DNA of 64,000 bases from a virus (Duplodnaviria; Caudoviricetes). The DNA lies in IMG/VR virus record IMGVR_UViG_3300014204_000113, positions 1-64,000 of that record; one strand, given 5' to 3'. Numbering within the stretch: the first letter of the stretch is position 1; every line of letters begins with the position of its first letter. The position numbers were made by a program, and so were the translations under genes. A model generated the notes under the pieces. It saw only the letters and a program-made list of their open reading frames with translations. It was not told the origin of the DNA and ran no database searches. Of this stretch, positions 2,920 through 45,484 are shown piece by piece.

Positions 2920-4237
2920 CGAGGTTATATGTAAAAACCACCCAATATTTTAAAAGACAATATGTAAGTATATGAAACCATAGATGAAATAGAAAAGGGC
3001 TACTATCATATGCTTGGGGTGAGAGGCACCCCCCACGCTTGTATGGCCGTGGCTTCTCGGGATTGGTCACCGCCGTAGGCCCCTGGTACTGGCAAACCCA
3101 CGCCCAGCCTGCCTTTGCACCACCTCAACCTTTACAAAATCTTTTCAATCATCCTTTACACAAAATCATACCATATCATTTACACCGATGCACCTATGCT
3201 CATATCATTCTAACCATAGGCCATAACCCCTTGCCCTACCTATCCTCCCCTTTGCCTATCCTGCCAGCTTGACGCCTATCTATCATACCTATCCTTCATT
3301 TAAACATATCCCATTATGGCCTATGCAAGGAACATTCCAGGATAGGCCATTATCTATCCTCCGTTTGTCTCATATCTCCTTATCCTGACAGGTCTTTAAG
3401 CGCGTTCTAAGGCCGATAGCAAGGTTTTATTGACAATCCCTTGTGATAGCATGGATATCCCTTGTTTTAAACATGTGCCTTATCTATATGATATTATTGG
3501 ATAATCAGGATAGGATATGATGATAGTGGGATAGCATACCTATTTTATGGCAGGTTAGCGAATTGTCTAATATTATTGGTTAGTTATGATAATTATGATA
3601 TGATTATTTTTTATTGATATGATGATATGAAATATATGGTTATGGCAAGGGTGATTAGTCTATTGATTATATATTCTTTTGGTAGGGTATAGTTAATTCA
3701 TAGCTAATTAGTATGCTATCCTTTGCCTATCCTTGTCTAGTGCTCTATCCTTTGTCTAGTGCTCTATCCTGATAACCTCTTGCCTTGCCTATCATCCTAT
3801 CAGTTATCATCTTATCGCTTGCCTATGGCCGTCTAGTGGTCTTATGGTATAGGTCTATCTATGGTTATCTTGATATGTTTCAAGAGGTTATCTATCTTTA
3901 TGGTTATTCACTTCTTGAATTCTTTACAAGTTAATACCCATCTTGTAAACTATTGCTATTTTTTGCGTTTAATGTAGGGGTATTAGAAAGGCTCACAGGG
4001 GTATTTTAGAAAGGTGAATGGTTTCGGTAGGGGTTAAAAAATATACCCTTGTGGGCTTATGTAAGGCCGATAGAGAGGCGATAAATTACCATGAACAGAT
4101 GTCAGGTTATGACAGGTTAGGCTATGTCAAACCATGATAGGTTATGACAGGTTAGGCTATGTCTGTCATAGACTTGACAGATAACTTACAATTTCATAAA
4201 ATAAATATAACTAAACTTTTTAAGGAGAATTAAAATT
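2920..4237. repeat. non-coding, low-complexity repeat-rich region
   Basis: recurrent CCTATC/CTATCC words; TTGTCTAGTGCTCTATCCT x2 (~3732-3770); GGTTATGACAGGTTAGGCTATGTC x2 (~4105 and ~4140). Confidence 0.7.
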
Positions 4238-13145: not shown

Positions 13146-13526
13146 ATGAGCAAACAAACTTTTGAAGAGGCTTTTTGTCAAATAGACGCTCATTATAAAA
13201 ACCAAATTTTAGCCGAAACTTGGGGTCATTTAGCGCCAAAGAAAAACAAATTATATAAAGGGTCTATTTTATTCGCTATAGGTTGTTATGGTGATGATCC
13301 TCTTAACCCCACAATCTTACATTGTGAATTTGATGGTTTAAATGATTCTCCTTGGTTTTTCGATTCTTTAATGGAATTTTTAGATAAATCAAATCAAGTA
13401 AGTTATGACAAAATGGAAAGGATTCAAAACTTTAAAGTCGGCAATGTTTATCAATTCGATGGAACTTTCAAAAATTATGTTTTTAAAGGGTCATTTCATC
13501 AATTAAAACTCGAAAACAACACGTGA
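13146..13526 (+). CDS. hypothetical protein whose 3' end overlaps the TnpB1 guide
   Basis: promoter and RBS upstream; ends KLENNT with the stop codon supplied by the element end. Confidence 0.7.
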   Translation: MSKQTFEEAFCQIDAHYKNQILAETWGHLAPKKNKLYKGSILFAIGCYGDDPLNPTILHCEFDGLNDSPWFFDSLMEFLDKSNQVSYDKMERIQNFKVGNVYQFDGTFKNYVFKGSFHQLKLENNT

Positions 13527-13590
13527 ATGTTCCCTTATAAATCTAAGGGCTTTCAGAACGTAAGTTCAAAGACTGCATTCCCAGTCTTAA
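13503..13590 (-). ncRNA. TnpB1 omegaRNA core scaffold plus guide
   Basis: three hairpins and AACATTCAC end conserved with the other two copies; guide = 13522 downwards (GTGTTGTTTTCGAGTTT); 5' boundary unknown. Confidence 0.75.
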
Positions 13591-14661
13591 AATATTAAAA
13601 GAGGAATTGAGGTCACGGTCTATATGCAAGCCACAAACAGGACAATCATAAATTCTATCGGCAAGAGTGAGTTTTTGCCTATTCCCACATTTATGACAAT
13701 CTCGGCTTGTATAGGCCGGATTGACTTTAACAAACAACCTACCGGCACTTTCAGCCTTGTAGGAAAGTTTATTAAAGAACCCAGACCAAGCCGCATCCGC
13801 AATACTTTTTGCAAGATTATGATTTTTAACCATTCTAGTAATAGTCAAATCTTCAACGCAAATTATTCCATAATTATCAACAATTTTTCTAGATTCTTGA
13901 TGAATGAAATTTTCTCTTTTAAATCTTATTCTTTCGTGAATCCTAGAAACGACTTTCTTTCTTTTAATTCTTTCTATAGTTCCTTTTTTAGTTTTGTCAA
14001 ACCTTCTTTGAATTCTGACAAGTTCTTTTTCTTCATTTCTAAAAAACTTAGGATTGTTAATAGAAGTATTATCAGAAAGAACAGCAAAAGATTTAATACC
14101 TACGTCGATTCCAACCTTATTCTTGTTAAATGGAAGAACTTTTCTTTCAACTTCACAAATAAAAGTCACATACCATTTTCCAGTATGGGAACGTTTGATT
14201 GTGGCAGTTTTTGGTTTACCTTCCAATTTTCTGTGTTGTTTAATTTTAATATGACCGATTTTATCAACAACCAATTTCTCATTTTTAATTTGGCAACCTT
14301 TGGGAACTTGCGGGAAGGTGATAGAATCATAATTCCCTTTTCCTTTAAATCTTGGATATCCAGGTTTGCCACCAGATTTAACTCTTTTAAAGAAAGATTT
14401 GAAAGCGAAATCAACTCTACTATTGACATTCTGCAAAACAGCAGCATTAATAATTTTAAAATTTTGATGGAATCTTTTAAGACTTGGCAACAATTTTTGT
14501 TGAATTTTAAGATTAAGAGAAACCCCTTGAATTTCCCAAGCATATTTCCTTTGTTCCAAAAGTTTGTTATAAAGATAACGACATTCTTCAAGAGTAAATT
14601 CCAGAAAGGATGTTTGGTGTTTAGTAGGATAAATCCTAAATTTGAAAGTTTTCATAGTCAC
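13543..14661 (-). CDS. tnpB: RNA-guided endonuclease TnpB (IS200/IS605 family), copy 1
   Basis: KTFKFRIYPT HTH, GYPRFK, RuvC GIDVG / VEDL / DRDLN, CHKC..CPVC Zn finger; likely start GTG 14661 or ATG 14655. Confidence 0.95.
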   Translation of the reverse strand: MTMKTFKFRIYPTKHQTSFLEFTLEECRYLYNKLLEQRKYAWEIQGVSLNLKIQQKLLPSLKRFHQNFKIINAAVLQNVNSRVDFAFKSFFKRVKSGGKPGYPRFKGKGNYDSITFPQVPKGCQIKNEKLVVDKIGHIKIKQHRKLEGKPKTATIKRSHTGKWYVTFICEVERKVLPFNKNKVGIDVGIKSFAVLSDNTSINNPKFFRNEEKELVRIQRRFDKTKKGTIERIKRKKVVSRIHERIRFKRENFIHQESRKIVDNYGIICVEDLTITRMVKNHNLAKSIADAAWSGFFNKLSYKAESAGRLFVKVNPAYTSRDCHKCGNRQKLTLADRIYDCPVCGLHIDRDLNSSFNILRLGMQSLNLRSESP

Positions 14662-14667
14662 ATCTAG

Positions 14668-14719
14668 ATTATAACATTTTGAAAAAGGCAGCGCAAGGTA
14701 AGAGTTCAAATTTTTGTAC
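14668..14719 (-). promoter_or_regulatory. tnpB1 promoter with upstream palindromic operator
   Basis: minus strand GTACAAAAATTTGAAC..TTGCGC..TGTTATAAT, 6 nt before GTG (leaderless-like). Confidence 0.7.
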
Positions 14720-14836
14720 CGAGAAAGAAAATAATTGAAAATAATGGAAGAAAATTGAAAATAATTCTTGATTAATACTTGCAAATAACATAAAATCTAA
14801 TTACTTAACTTGTCAAAGACAAGGCGTTAAAGGAGG

Positions 14837-18695: not shown

Positions 18696-18845
18696 CCCTC
18701 TTTTATTTTGTGTGAAATACGCCTGAGAACGCGTAGAAATGGCCCAAAAACAAGAGATAATTTAAAAGAGGTACTTTAGGTAGGGTTTGGAGAAAATTGT
18801 CAAAATAAGGGCTATTTAATTCAAATTATAAGGGGGTATAAAATT

Positions 18846-19169
18846 ATGAATTTTGAGAACAGTTATCCTTATTCACAAGATGTAAAATTGCTCAAAGAAT
18901 TGAAGCTGGCCGCTTGGTCTGCAAAACACGGCGAAGAAAAGAAAATCGGCATCGTGGTTTGTGATGAATCAACGGTTGAAATTTTCGTGACTTGTTATCC
19001 GGCGCAATTTTACAAATTCATTATCAAAATTGGTTTAAAAAACTATGATACAGATATTATTTCTCGCCAGATTTATGAAATGACAACTGGGTCTGGTGCA
19101 TTGTCTGACTACTGGCCTATGGCTAAAGCCATTGCTGAAAATATGGTGGTTATCAAGGAAGTTTCATAA
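18846..19169 (+). CDS. hypothetical protein
   Basis: RBS present. Confidence 0.7.
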   Translation: MNFENSYPYSQDVKLLKELKLAAWSAKHGEEKKIGIVVCDESTVEIFVTCYPAQFYKFIIKIGLKNYDTDIISRQIYEMTTGSGALSDYWPMAKAIAENMVVIKEVS

Positions 19170-19189
19170 AAGGTTAAATTATCGCATAT

Positions 19190-19273
19190 GTTCAAAAATT
19201 TGTACTTTCTTCTAAAAATAATTTTCAAAAAGTGAAAATAATTCTTGACAAGTTGATTTGAATAATTTAAGAT
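19190..19273 (+). promoter_or_regulatory. operator plus sigma70 promoter cassette
   Basis: GTTCAAAAATTTGTAC then AAAATAATTTTCAAAAAGTGAAAATAATTCTTGACAAG; similar cassette at ~31959, ~36680 and, without the operator, ~58598. Confidence 0.7.
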
Positions 19274-22135: not shown

Positions 22136-22512
22136 TGATAAATAAAAAACAAATAGAAGAAATAATGAGACTCAAAGATGTTCTTAAAGTTGAAGTTGAA
22201 AAAGAACAAACAACTATTTTAACTTCTGATATTTACATGGACAATATTTTGTTAGGTAGATATAAAATAATCTTAAAACCTTATAGTGGAGAAGAAAATA
22301 ATCCCTATATAATACGGCTTGATGCCTTTATAAATGTTATCTTCAGCCATCTTTCCAATGCAGCTATTGTCTATGACAGGTTGCAAGATATCATTCCGTC
22401 ACCTGAACTTGAGGAACAAAAACAAAAGGTGATTGAAGTGCAAAACGAAGCGTTAAATGTTTTCAATCTGATGATTGATGAAAGAGAAGAAAGAAAGGAA
22501 AAAGATAAATGA
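22135..22512 (+). CDS. hypothetical protein
   Basis: start overlaps upstream stop. Confidence 0.65.
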   Translation: MINKKQIEEIMRLKDVLKVEVEKEQTTILTSDIYMDNILLGRYKIILKPYSGEENNPYIIRLDAFINVIFSHLSNAAIVYDRLQDIIPSPELEEQKQKVIEVQNEALNVFNLMIDEREERKEKDK

Positions 22513-22739
22513 TAAACATTGATGGCGAAAAGAATATAGCAATTGAAACTTTGCGCCACTATTGGCTAAAGAGCAGATTGTCAGATGGTCAATTTATCAA
22601 AGAAGTTATGAAACTAACAGGAAGAATTATCTATCAGATGAATGGATTCAGACTAACCAGATTAGGACAAGTAAAACTGGTTGAATATCCAAAAGGCTGG
22701 GCTATCATAAGAAAGGACAAAACCTTATATGCCGAATGA
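22509..22739 (+). CDS. hypothetical protein
   Basis: ATGA overlap with upstream gene. Confidence 0.6.
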   Translation: MINIDGEKNIAIETLRHYWLKSRLSDGQFIKEVMKLTGRIIYQMNGFRLTRLGQVKLVEYPKGWAIIRKDKTLYAE

Positions 22740-22758
22740 AATTTTATATAAAGGTTCA

Positions 22759-22845
22759 TTTTGCTGGCACGGCGAATCGTGAATGTTCTGTCTAAATTCA
22801 GACAGCTTTTTGGATATTATCCAAAGACTCCATCCCGAGTCTCAA
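22759..22845 (-). ncRNA. TnpB2 omegaRNA core scaffold plus guide
   Basis: hairpins and AACATTCAC end at 22779; guide GATTCGCCGTGCCAGCAAAA. Confidence 0.75.
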
Positions 22846-23916
22846 TATGTTAATTGCAGCATTATGATCTCTATCTAACACTAAACCACAATGAGGGCAA
22901 GAATGTATTCTGACAGACAAGTCTTTATCAACAATTTGACTGCAAGAAGAACACTTCTTGCTAGTGTTTCGAGGATTAATGAATATGACTTTTCTACCAG
23001 CATATTCTGCTTTGTAGACGGTCATATTCATAAATTGATTCCAAGCAACATTACCTATAGATTTTCTAATCCCTTTGAAAGATTTATCTTTCATTTGTTC
23101 GATATTCAATTTCTCAAAAACTATGATTTGATTCTCATTCACAATTCTTCTAGACAATTTATGGGCAAAATCGATTCTTTTGTTTACAATCTTAGAATGA
23201 ATCTTAGCAACAATCTTTTTGAGTTTATTTCTTTTAAAAGAGCCTTTTTTCTCTTTACTGAGTTTTCTCTGACATTTAGTAAGTTTGTCTTCACTTTCTT
23301 TAAAGAATCTAGGATTATCAACTTTCTCACCATCAGAAAATGTTGCAAAGTTGATAAGACCGACATCAATTCCAATAGATTTGTCAATAATAGGCAATTT
23401 AATATTTTCAACTTCACAACTAAAACAAGCATACCATTTGCCGGTGGAATCTCTTCCGATAGTAAGTGTCTTAATTTTTCCTTCAGTTGGTCTATGTTGT
23501 TTGATTCTGACAGAGCCAATTTTAGACATCTTAAGTTTGTTGTCAACAAGTTTAAAACCATCTTGAGTAAATGTAAAAGAATTATATCTGTCATAACCTT
23601 GAAATCTTGGATATCCTGGTTTGTCACCAGATTTTATTCTTCTGAAAAAAGATTTAAAAGCTTTGTCAAGCCTGTCTTGTGCATTTCTAAGACAATGGAT
23701 ATGAATATCTTTAAGTTCTGGTTTGGTTTTTCTCCATTCTGGGATAAACTTTTGAGTGTCATACAAACCAAGACTTTTCTTTTCTTCTTCCCAACTCTTT
23801 TTGCAAACTTCCAAAGTCTTATTATATACCCATCTGCAACCATCAAGATAAGATTGCAAAGATTTCTTCTGTTTGGAAGTAGGATAAATCCTGAATTTAA
23901 ATGTTTTCATGCTCAT
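22798..23916 (-). CDS. tnpB: RNA-guided endonuclease TnpB, copy 2
   Basis: GIDVG / FEKL / DRDHNAAINI intact RuvC triad; CSSC..CPHC. Confidence 0.95.
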   Translation of the reverse strand: MSMKTFKFRIYPTSKQKKSLQSYLDGCRWVYNKTLEVCKKSWEEEKKSLGLYDTQKFIPEWRKTKPELKDIHIHCLRNAQDRLDKAFKSFFRRIKSGDKPGYPRFQGYDRYNSFTFTQDGFKLVDNKLKMSKIGSVRIKQHRPTEGKIKTLTIGRDSTGKWYACFSCEVENIKLPIIDKSIGIDVGLINFATFSDGEKVDNPRFFKESEDKLTKCQRKLSKEKKGSFKRNKLKKIVAKIHSKIVNKRIDFAHKLSRRIVNENQIIVFEKLNIEQMKDKSFKGIRKSIGNVAWNQFMNMTVYKAEYAGRKVIFINPRNTSKKCSSCSQIVDKDLSVRIHSCPHCGLVLDRDHNAAINILRLGMESLDNIQKAV

Positions 23917-23922
23917 GTCTAG

Positions 23923-23973
23923 ATTATAACATATGGGAAAAATAATGCAATAGAAAAGTACAAAATTTTGTAC
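23923..23973 (-). promoter_or_regulatory. tnpB2 promoter with perfect palindromic operator
   Basis: GTACAAAATTTTGTAC (23958-23973)..TTGCAT..TGTTATAAT. Confidence 0.7.
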
Positions 23974-23995
23974 TAGAGATAAGGAGGCGAACTAA

Positions 23996-24226
23996 ATGAT
24001 TTTGTTTAAAGTGGTTTTCTGTTGGCATGGTGAAAGCCATATTTTGTATTCTCATGCTGCCAATGAAACCAAGGCATTTCAAAATTGCTGTGTCCAGTTG
24101 GCAAAGAAATTGGAATATTCGGCAAGCGCGGTTAGAAACTATTTCAGGAATTCGGATAGGTATGAAATTACAAAGGAGAAAAATAATGTTAAACGAATGG
24201 TCTGCCGAAATAATGTGGCCGAATGA
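23996..24226 (+). CDS. hypothetical protein carrying a recoded TnpB2 target-like site
   Basis: AGGAGG RBS; MILFKVVFCWHGESH. Confidence 0.75.
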   Translation: MILFKVVFCWHGESHILYSHAANETKAFQNCCVQLAKKLEYSASAVRNYFRNSDRYEITKEKNNVKRMVCRNNVAE

Positions 24227-35447: not shown

Positions 35448-35479
35448 AAAATTGGGAGAATCATTTGTATATTTGTATA

Positions 35480-35567
35480 TTTGTATATAAAAATCAGTGG
35501 TGAATGTTCTATCTAAAGTCAGACAGCTTTTAGAACCAAGTTCAAAGACTCCATCCCGAGTCTTAAA
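35480..35567 (-). ncRNA. TnpB3 omegaRNA core scaffold plus guide
   Basis: hairpins and AACATTCAC end at 35500; guide CACTGATTTTTATATACAAA. Confidence 0.7.
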
Positions 35568-36637
35568 ATATTAATCGCGGCATTGTGATCACGATCAATA
35601 ACTAAATTACAATGAGGGCAAGAATGAGTTCTAACAGACAACTCTTTATCAACCAAGTTATAACATCCAGAACACATCTTGCTGGTGTTTCTTGGATTTA
35701 CGAAGATTGTTTGTCTACCAGCATATTCTGCTTTGTATTTAACAAAATTCATAAATTGATTCCAAGCAACATTACTTATGGATTTTCTAATTCCTTTAAA
35801 GGTAGTTTGTTGCATACTTTTAATATCAAGTTTTTCAAAAACTATTATTTGATTTTCATTTATGATTCTTCTGCTGAGTTTATGTGCAAAATCTGTTCTT
35901 TTGTTTGTGATTTTAGAATAAATTTTAGCAACAATTTTCTTGAGTTTATTTCTTTTTCTAGAACATTTTTTCGCATTAGAAAATTTACTTTGATATCTTG
36001 CAAGTTTCTGTTCAGATTCTTTGAAAAATCTAGGATTAGGAATCTTCTCGCCATCAGAGAAAGTAGCAAAAGAAACAAGACCCACATCAATACCAATAGG
36101 TTTCTCAATATTTGGCAAAATATTCGTTTCAACTTCACAACTAAAACATGCAAACCACTTGTTTGTAGAATCTCTTCTGATAGTGAGAGTTTTAATCTTG
36201 CCCTCAATATTCCTATGTTGTTTGATTCTAACAGCGCCTATTTTAGACATCTTCAAAAACTTATCTTTAATCTTAAAGCCGCCTTGAGTAAATGTGAAAC
36301 TATTATACCTATCATAACCTTGAAATCTAGGATAACCGGGTTTATCGCCTTTCTTAACTCGTCTAAAGAAAGATTTAAAAGCTTTATCAAGTCTATTTTG
36401 TGCATCTCTAAGGCAATGAATATGAATATTTTCAAATTCAGGTTTTTCTTTTTTCCATTGAGGCAAAAGATTATAAGTATCATAAAGACTAAAACTTTTC
36501 TTTTCTTCTTCCCAGCTTTTCTTTCTAGTTTCAAGCGTTTTGTTGTAAATCCAGCGACAAGAATCAAGATAGGCTTGCAAAGATTTTTCTTGTTTACTAG
36601 TAGGATAAATCCTGAATTTAAAAGTTTTCATGCTCAC
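35519..36637 (-). CDS. tnpB: RNA-guided endonuclease TnpB, copy 3
   Basis: GIDVG / FEKL / DRDHNAAINI; close paralogue of copy 2; start GTG 36637 or ATG 36631. Confidence 0.95.
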   Translation of the reverse strand: MSMKTFKFRIYPTSKQEKSLQAYLDSCRWIYNKTLETRKKSWEEEKKSFSLYDTYNLLPQWKKEKPEFENIHIHCLRDAQNRLDKAFKSFFRRVKKGDKPGYPRFQGYDRYNSFTFTQGGFKIKDKFLKMSKIGAVRIKQHRNIEGKIKTLTIRRDSTNKWFACFSCEVETNILPNIEKPIGIDVGLVSFATFSDGEKIPNPRFFKESEQKLARYQSKFSNAKKCSRKRNKLKKIVAKIYSKITNKRTDFAHKLSRRIINENQIIVFEKLDIKSMQQTTFKGIRKSISNVAWNQFMNFVKYKAEYAGRQTIFVNPRNTSKMCSGCYNLVDKELSVRTHSCPHCNLVIDRDHNAAINILRLGMESLNLVLKAV

Positions 36638-36643
36638 ATCTAG

Positions 36644-36760
36644 ATTATAACATATGGAAAAAGACAATGCAAGCTAGTAGTTCAAATTTTTGTACTGAGG
36701 ATGAAAATAATTTGGTTTGAGTGAAAATTTTTCTTGACAAGGTGATTTTAATGATTTAAT
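36644..36760. promoter_or_regulatory. divergent promoters sharing one operator (36680-36695)
   Basis: minus-strand TTGCAT..TGTTATAAT for tnpB3; plus-strand TTGACA cassette for the second E2 operon. Confidence 0.7.
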
Positions 36761-36793
36761 ATGAACTAAGAAATTGATTTGCAAGGAGGTTTA

Positions 36794-45431: not shown

Positions 45432-45484
45432 GGTACAAAAATTTGAACTTTTGTCTTGCACTAAGGATTTCTAAATTCTATAAT
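45432..45484 (+). promoter_or_regulatory. operator plus promoter with the same architecture as the tnpB promoters
   Basis: GGTACAAAAATTTGAACT (identical to the tnpB1 operator)..TTGCAC-N17-TATAAT. Confidence 0.7.

Follow-up and report, generated by a model that had tools for sequence, protein, structure and literature searches.

The closest described system is the TnpB-omegaRNA pair of ISDra2 (PMC8612924, PMC10097598), in which the guide derives from about 16 nt of flank past the right end of the element (PMC8612924) and mismatches such as a double mismatch in positions 1-12 abolish cleavage (PMC10097598). TnpB can also spread independently of TnpA by homing, or gene drive, in which an empty allele is cut and then repaired from a cassette-bearing genome (PMC10055086). 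Demonstrations of such homing come from bacteria and plasmids (PMC10055086, PMC11870625); its occurrence between co-infecting phages, as "non-restorative homing", has been discussed as a possibility only (PMC13565253). Two further systems bear comparison. In the intronless homing of phage T4 SegF and SegB, a nuclease gene is wedged between conserved phage genes and substitutions close to the insertion point set the resident allele apart from sensitive ones (PMC13565253), while in IStrons, which combine IS605 or IS607 elements with group I introns, a TnpB element sits inside a gene without destroying it (PMC10690162).

Here we report a locus in a phage genome that resembles each of these systems in part. 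The window, by which we mean the whole 64,000-nucleotide stretch of DNA analysed, covers the initial 64 kb of a viral genome that is 187,988 bp long and carries direct terminal repeats. Within it, the cassette of one TnpB gene (TnpB2) lies inside the 5′ end of a small gene, referred to here as gene X, such that a relic of the gene start occupies the guide position and the interrupted gene is re-started across the cassette. We consider this anatomy to be real and unusual.

As in ISDra2, a TnpB with a RuvC triad (full-length homology to solved ISDra2 TnpB structures, residues 4-361, E 7e-59) is accompanied by an omegaRNA scaffold that overlaps the tnpB 3′ end, with a guide predicted to come from the DNA just beyond the right end (PMC8612924). 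The differences from ISDra2 are that the phage genome carries no TnpA, that the inferred TAM is TTAT, one base off the TTGAT of ISDra2, that the left end consists of a promoter and a 16-bp palindrome also found at other phage promoters, and that the cassette stands between the copies of a diverged duplication of the target gene 5′ end, whereas canonical insertion duplicates nothing. TnpB homing offers a route of spread that needs no TnpA, and cassette-free alleles that nearly match the guide exist; however, the protospacers in the known empty alleles are without the inferred TAM. Recognition would here be by an RNA guide, not by protein as for SegF and SegB, and because the substitutions at our locus are common to nuclease-free alleles they provide no evidence of selected immunity. 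In IStrons the gene is restored by RNA splicing, whereas here a second 5′ copy with new translation signals keeps the gene whole at the DNA level, which represents a different way for a TnpB cassette to occupy a coding region. The locus unites a maintained TnpA-less phage TnpB, a gene relic as putative guide, near-matching cassette-free alleles and a non-matching resident allele.

The TnpB genes of the phage

Nearly all genes in the window are on the plus strand, and three minus-strand ORFs are TnpB genes:

13543-14784, minus strand: TnpB1, with all three Pfam TnpB domains
22798-23916, minus strand: TnpB2 (tnpB2), 372 aa, with Pfam OrfB_IS605, Cas12f1-like_TNB and HTH_OrfB_IS605 above cut-offs and the RuvC D-E-D present
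35519-36667, minus strand: TnpB3, with all three Pfam TnpB domains

By its three Pfam domains and its full-length match to ISDra2, TnpB2 conforms to the TnpB type of OMEGA elements, which combines HTH/WED-REC with a zinc ribbon and a split RuvC bearing D-E-D, and its GIDVG, FEKL and DRDHN motifs align with the RuvC motifs of ISDra2. The residues D184, E268 and D350 are invariant across TnpB1, TnpB2 and TnpB3; as they are kept in all three copies and the guide lies within coding sequence, a nuclease-dead TnpB of the TldR type, which would have lost RuvC catalytic residues and direct its guide to a promoter, was rejected. The closest relative of TnpB2, at about 81% nucleotide identity, is the TnpB cassette at the same place in a related 189,632-bp phage, G001 (locus L006), and the dN/dS of 0.13 between the two tnpB copies (range 0.13-0.17) indicates purifying selection. 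No Y1 TnpA was found in the 187,988-bp genome, where PF01797 was without a match and controls were positive, and a megablast search of phage GenBank returned no match.

Anatomy of the TnpB2 cassette

The cassette comprises the following parts:

22779-23978, minus strand: TnpB2 cassette, a TnpA-less IS605-type TnpB/omegaRNA element inside the 5′ end of gene X
22779-22868, minus strand: 3′ portion of the omegaRNA scaffold, predicted by RNAalifold to form three hairpins and an unpaired tail, overlapping the tnpB2 3′ end
23958-23973: perfect 16-bp palindrome, outermost part of the tnpB promoter region
23974-23982, minus strand: left-end spacer of 5 nt, then ATAA (23979-23982), the complement of TTAT

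The scaffold was delimited by comparing 12 elements, namely the three window copies, two from the related phage and seven more distant ones, in all of which a conserved 3′ block ends in TTCAC and the flanks directly beyond are unrelated. RNAalifold on the last 90 nt of these elements gave 14 predicted pairs, 13 of which are kept via changes on both sides, and the omegaRNA matched no Rfam family. The predicted arrangement, a structured omegaRNA at the tnpB 3′ end whose guide comes from the flank, is that of an OMEGA element; no intron was detected. Read on the plus strand, the last omegaRNA hairpin with its T-run (22788-22805) scores as intrinsic-terminator-like just past the relic of gene X. 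Between the cassette and the downstream copy of X, no promoter was predicted.

Moving outward from the tnpB2 start, the order is promoter, palindrome, five bases and ATAA, and at TnpB1, TnpB3, L006 and a further G001 cassette (L034) the palindrome is followed by 11 nt and ATAA, with unrelated sequences beyond. The window contains six copies of the palindrome (GTWCAAAWWTTTGWAC) against 0.06 expected, at 14704, 19190, 23958, 31959, 36680 and 45433; half of them belong to tnpB promoters and the other three do not. One of the latter, at 45433, is followed by a plus-strand TTGCAC...TATAAT promoter that has the layout of the tnpB promoters. The palindrome at 23958-23973 may act as a phage operator or else form the left-end hairpin of the element. 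The intact relatives L015-L020 have a GC-rich left-end hairpin that is absent at TnpB2, where TTAT is present; the palindrome, which lies 5-11 nt from TTAT, also occurs at promoters not associated with tnpB.

In the same relatives the left end is bordered by TTAT, and L018 and L019, which are one element in two contexts, become identical starting at TTAT. These borders suggest, with moderate confidence, that TTAT is the insertion motif and also the TAM. The confidence is only moderate because the palindrome also stands at three non-tnpB sites and because A/T-rich promoter UP elements look alike.

A relic of gene X at the guide position

On the right-end side of the cassette the relevant features are:

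22509-22739, plus strand: upstream ("left") gene, 76 aa, whose stop overlaps the first codons of the relic, as in cassette-free relatives
22729-22782, plus strand: relic of X, ATG and 16 codons (MPNEILYKGSFCWHGES), the native 5′ end of X closed by a TGA at 22780-22782
22759-22778, minus strand: predicted omegaRNA guide position, 16-nt core 22763-22778, read directly after the scaffold

A sequence-only reading of this DNA had observed that 22759-22778 and 24017-24036, in the copy of X beyond the cassette, both encode FCWHGES and differ at six nucleotides, all synonymous. We confirmed this: in the frame opened by the ATG at 22729 the first stretch reads F C W H G E S, with two nucleotides of the serine codon, the mismatches fall at positions 1, 2, 6, 9, 15 and 18 counted from the scaffold, and the serine is of the TCN codon family in the relic and of the AGY family in the resident copy. 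The weaker similarity that was said to extend back to an ATG is also present (ILYKGS against ILFKVV), the in-frame ATG of the relic being that at 22729; another ATG, at 22736, lies in a different frame.

The same reading saw in this flank a remnant of the native X 5′ end, and comparison with five cassette-free or differently interrupted X alleles from metagenomes bears it out. Homology searches retrieved four tnpB-less loci with gene X (L007, equal to L008; L009, equal to L010; and L011), and the relic is collinear with them, with the start overlap kept: in L007, L008, L009 and L011, X is preceded by a homologue of the left gene with an 11-nt overlap. The 50 nt of relic sequence (22729-22778) are identical to L007 at 43/50 positions and to L011 at 44/50, the context of the relic ATG is the same as in L007, and each residue of the 17-residue relic peptide is found in some natural allele. 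As the overlap, the ATG context and the identity all reproduce the native start of X, the relic is genuine. Its stop codon comes from the cassette right end, and no microhomology at this junction was seen by eye. The left gene belongs to no Pfam or PHROG family.

That the match reflects chance resemblance or an assembly artefact is extremely improbable. Only its short length speaks for such an explanation, whereas collinearity with native alleles over 50 nt, including the overlap with the upstream gene, speaks against it, as does the tblastx match at TnpB2 (E 1.9e-5) between 90 nt of right-end flank and 700 nt of flank on the opposite side. Furthermore, contigs from two other samples (Logan SRR6484787 and ENA ERZ27247358) are 100% identical over the locus, and three assemblies with the same structure exclude an artefact of assembly. 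Samples JGI 3300014205, 3300037067 and 3300029288 contain this phage group, as do ERZ27247358 and SRR6484787.

Because the relic touches the omegaRNA scaffold, its last 16-20 nt would be transcribed as guide, and the conserved scaffold end together with the divergence of the flanks beyond it shows the relic end to be the predicted guide of TnpB2. With up to three mismatches allowed, the guide had no further match in the whole genome or in G001.

The resident copy of gene X

Beyond the left end of the cassette, gene X begins anew:

23983-23998, plus strand: new SD (GGAGG, 23983-23987) and ATG of resident X, absent from the natural alleles L007, L009 and L011 and from L006
23996-24226, plus strand: resident X, 76 aa, complete, native from about codon 5 on
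24017-24036, plus strand: site in resident X equivalent to the guide

The claim that X on the far side of tnpB has its own ribosome-binding site was correct, GGAGG standing 8 nt before an ATG that is not the native one and that may derive from native codons 3-4 by loss of 2 nt. The new leader has no second copy in the window and none elsewhere in IMG/VR. Resident X is 79-85% identical to four homologues, with 79-84% nucleotide identity in the gene body; searches for its function gave no Pfam, PHROG or informative Atlas match. With the relic on one side and a complete X on the other, the cassette is bracketed by a direct repeat of 38 nt whose copies have diverged (25/38 identical), and X remains intact. 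What is found is not the simple insertion of an OMEGA element, which would be free of target duplication and would leave an empty site consisting of TAM and guide match.

Natural haplotypes account for the apparent recoding

The sequence-only reading took the resident 5′ end of X for an immune replacement. As a full model, TnpB2 would be a domesticated RNA-guided homing or allele-exclusion nuclease that cuts X in cassette-free co-infecting relatives, the resident X being immune through recoding. We consider this model unlikely. Scans of metagenomes and IMG/VR for more alleles returned only the known loci and two unrelated chance matches. Across the 20-nt site the alleles compare as follows:

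L007 against L009, both tnpB-less: 6 mismatches, including the TCT/AGT serine
Resident copy against L006: 0 mismatches
Resident copy against L007: 2 mismatches
Relic against L011: 1 mismatch
Relic against L009: 2 mismatches

On these sequences there are two natural haplotype groups at the site, group A comprising the relic, L009 and L011, and group B comprising the resident copy, L006 and L007. The synonymous differences had been taken as immune recoding, but two tnpB-less alleles differ from each other by just as many nucleotides, and the supposedly recoded codons of the resident copy are those of natural tnpB-less L007 and of L006, the latter at 20/20 positions. Special recoding was rejected on these grounds, and the comparison shows the differences to be standing variation between haplotype groups and not purpose-made. 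The two phage lineages are nearly saturated for synonymous change, with a pS of 0.50-0.59 in tnpB, so that differences at 5 of the 6 synonymous-capable codons are unremarkable for alleles of different groups. Perfectly synonymous "recoding" beside a guide can therefore arise by the joining of two natural haplotypes at saturated divergence.

One observation does favour allele exclusion. Synonymous diversity at the seven FCWHGES codons is about double that in the remainder of X (30/60 against 106/385 codon comparisons), although this is a hint only, coming from non-independent pairs in a small sample of five sequences (L006, L007, L009, L011 and the window).

Origin of the arrangement

The reading that we prefer, and to which we give about an even chance, is that the cassette in the 5′ end of X, with a group-A relic as guide and a group-B X re-started beyond it, arose from insertions at two sites followed by recombination. 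Two lineages would each have received a canonical insertion 3′ of TTAT, but at different points in X: one at codon 3 in alleles of group B (site 1), a state that would be kept in L006, and the other at codons 20-21 of an L009-type allele (site 2). A crossover inside the shared cassette would then have joined a group-A left flank to a group-B right flank, and the recombinant would retain a working X whose SD and ATG were gained later. The consequence would be a guide that matches group-A alleles free of the cassette but fails to match the resident copy. An extra step is needed, namely the loss of 4 nt (TCAC) exactly at the right-end junction.

Several features of the related loci agree with this sequence of events. 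In L006 native X resumes at codon 3 directly after ATAA; ATAA at codon 3 is found only in L007 and L006, both of group B, and at codons 20-21 only in L009. Identity is highest with L009 for the left gene (85.1%) and with L006 for the X body (84.0%), so that the flank affinities point as two-site insertion with recombination predicts, though the differences are small. No genome with a simple site-2 insertion was found, and sliding identity between the TnpB2 and L006 cassettes gave no clear signal of a mosaic breakpoint.

The duplication may instead have come first. An ancestor with a relic-SD-X junction, formed for example by illegitimate module exchange or by loss of an older mobile element, would have received a single TnpA-catalysed canonical insertion 3′ of TTAT at that junction. 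Both junctions would then be canonical for one event and no 4-nt loss would be required; IS200/IS605 insertion makes no target duplication (PMC8612924), and turnover of intergenic cassettes is common in these phages. Nevertheless, the element would have had to land exactly between two copies of an existing repeat, the L006 cassette at the same locus, which has no relic and more native X at its left end, is hard to derive by this route, and a cassette-free relic-SD junction was not found in IMG/VR. We therefore hold a duplication-first origin to be improbable.

In L006 itself, X lacks its native start, and an 84-aa ORF (3938-4192) that begins at an ATG in the cassette promoter/left-end region runs into X, so that the X protein of this phage may include residues that the cassette encodes.

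Candidate targets and the role of TnpB2

Whether two-site insertion with recombination or another route produced it, the guide has near-perfect protospacers in tnpB-less alleles: 19/20 positions match in L011 and 18/20 in L009, against 14/20 in the resident copy. This speaks for allele exclusion, as does the position of the resident mismatches. The earlier claim that TAM-proximal mismatches protect the resident copy stands in so far as 4 of them (1, 2, 6 and 9) fall within the 12 TAM-proximal positions, with a double mismatch at 1-2 of the kind that abolishes cleavage by ISDra2 TnpB (PMC10097598); it does not stand as evidence of special recoding. Allele exclusion would also be in keeping with an intact tnpB under purifying selection, with the lack of tnpA, which leaves only homing-type spread available, and with the presence of cassette-bearing and tnpB-less phages together in one sample, ERZ27247358.

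The flank of the protospacer, however, argues the other way. In group-A alleles it is GTGA and not the inferred TTAT, which adjoins the protospacer in no known allele (in L009 a TTAT lies four bases further out), and the proposed cleavage of natural alleles is therefore unsupported under the canonical rule. A TTAT beside the protospacer would place a stop codon after the serine, which rules out every functional X allele as a canonical target. Such a target would exist only in a cassette-less form of the rearranged locus, which was not found in IMG/VR. Further points count against allele exclusion: no similar relic was found at 12 related elements, the proposed parallel at TnpB1 fails, and in the orthologous cassette of L006 the junction of scaffold end and right end is degenerate, with no relic.

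In the absence of a canonical target with a TTAT TAM, the guide is more likely a by-product of its position than an allele-exclusion weapon, and we regard allele exclusion as a minority possibility. Purifying selection, the intact catalytic triad and the intact scaffold nonetheless argue that TnpB2 does something, possibly with this guide. One such role, which we consider quite doubtful, is that the TAM has drifted from TTAT and that TnpB2 cuts group-A X in co-infecting relatives and converts them, in what would be an RNA-guided form of intronless homing. If so, the group-B copy of X beyond the cassette, being resistant, would travel along, and the partial duplication would let a guide aimed at coding sequence spread without killing the gene. 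The locus provides defined natural substrates on which cleavage and TAM can be cleanly tested.

Other cassette sites

A same-orientation duplication across the flanks, sought by tblastx, was found only at TnpB2 among 13 elements, with nothing comparable at the 12 related ones, including TnpB3. At TnpB1 a "KLENNT" guide had been thought to copy a neighbouring gene; tblastx showed no duplication there, and the flank instead encodes the native C-terminal tail of a 126-aa protein, whose conserved family (35 homologues) ends in ...FKNYxFKGxxxRLKL.

The TnpB3 cassette is intergenic, and the orthologous G001 site (L036) is without it. Also missing from G001 are 45 nt next to the guide (35455-35499), which include three 8-mers in tandem, and 69 nt at the opposite end (36711-36770 region, with a consensus-like promoter), so that the unit by which the two phages differ is larger than the cassette. 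Definition of the cassette ends from empty sites was attempted and abandoned, since with the extra flank also absent the TnpB3 site in G001 gives no clean junction. L034 was likewise rejected as an empty-site pair because its counterpart in the window is a different gene. L034 (G001:88960-93060) is a full TnpB cassette; at the corresponding place (18814-19212) the window has a 107-aa ORF (18846-19169), followed by a lone 16-bp palindrome (19190-19205) and the same downstream promoter as in L034. This region may represent either replacement between cassette and gene or a solo left-end remnant.

At TnpB1, where the ORF (13146-13526) is the conserved 126-aa gene, and at TnpB2 (22729-22782), the right end of the cassette supplies the incoming ORF with its stop (...N|G TGA).
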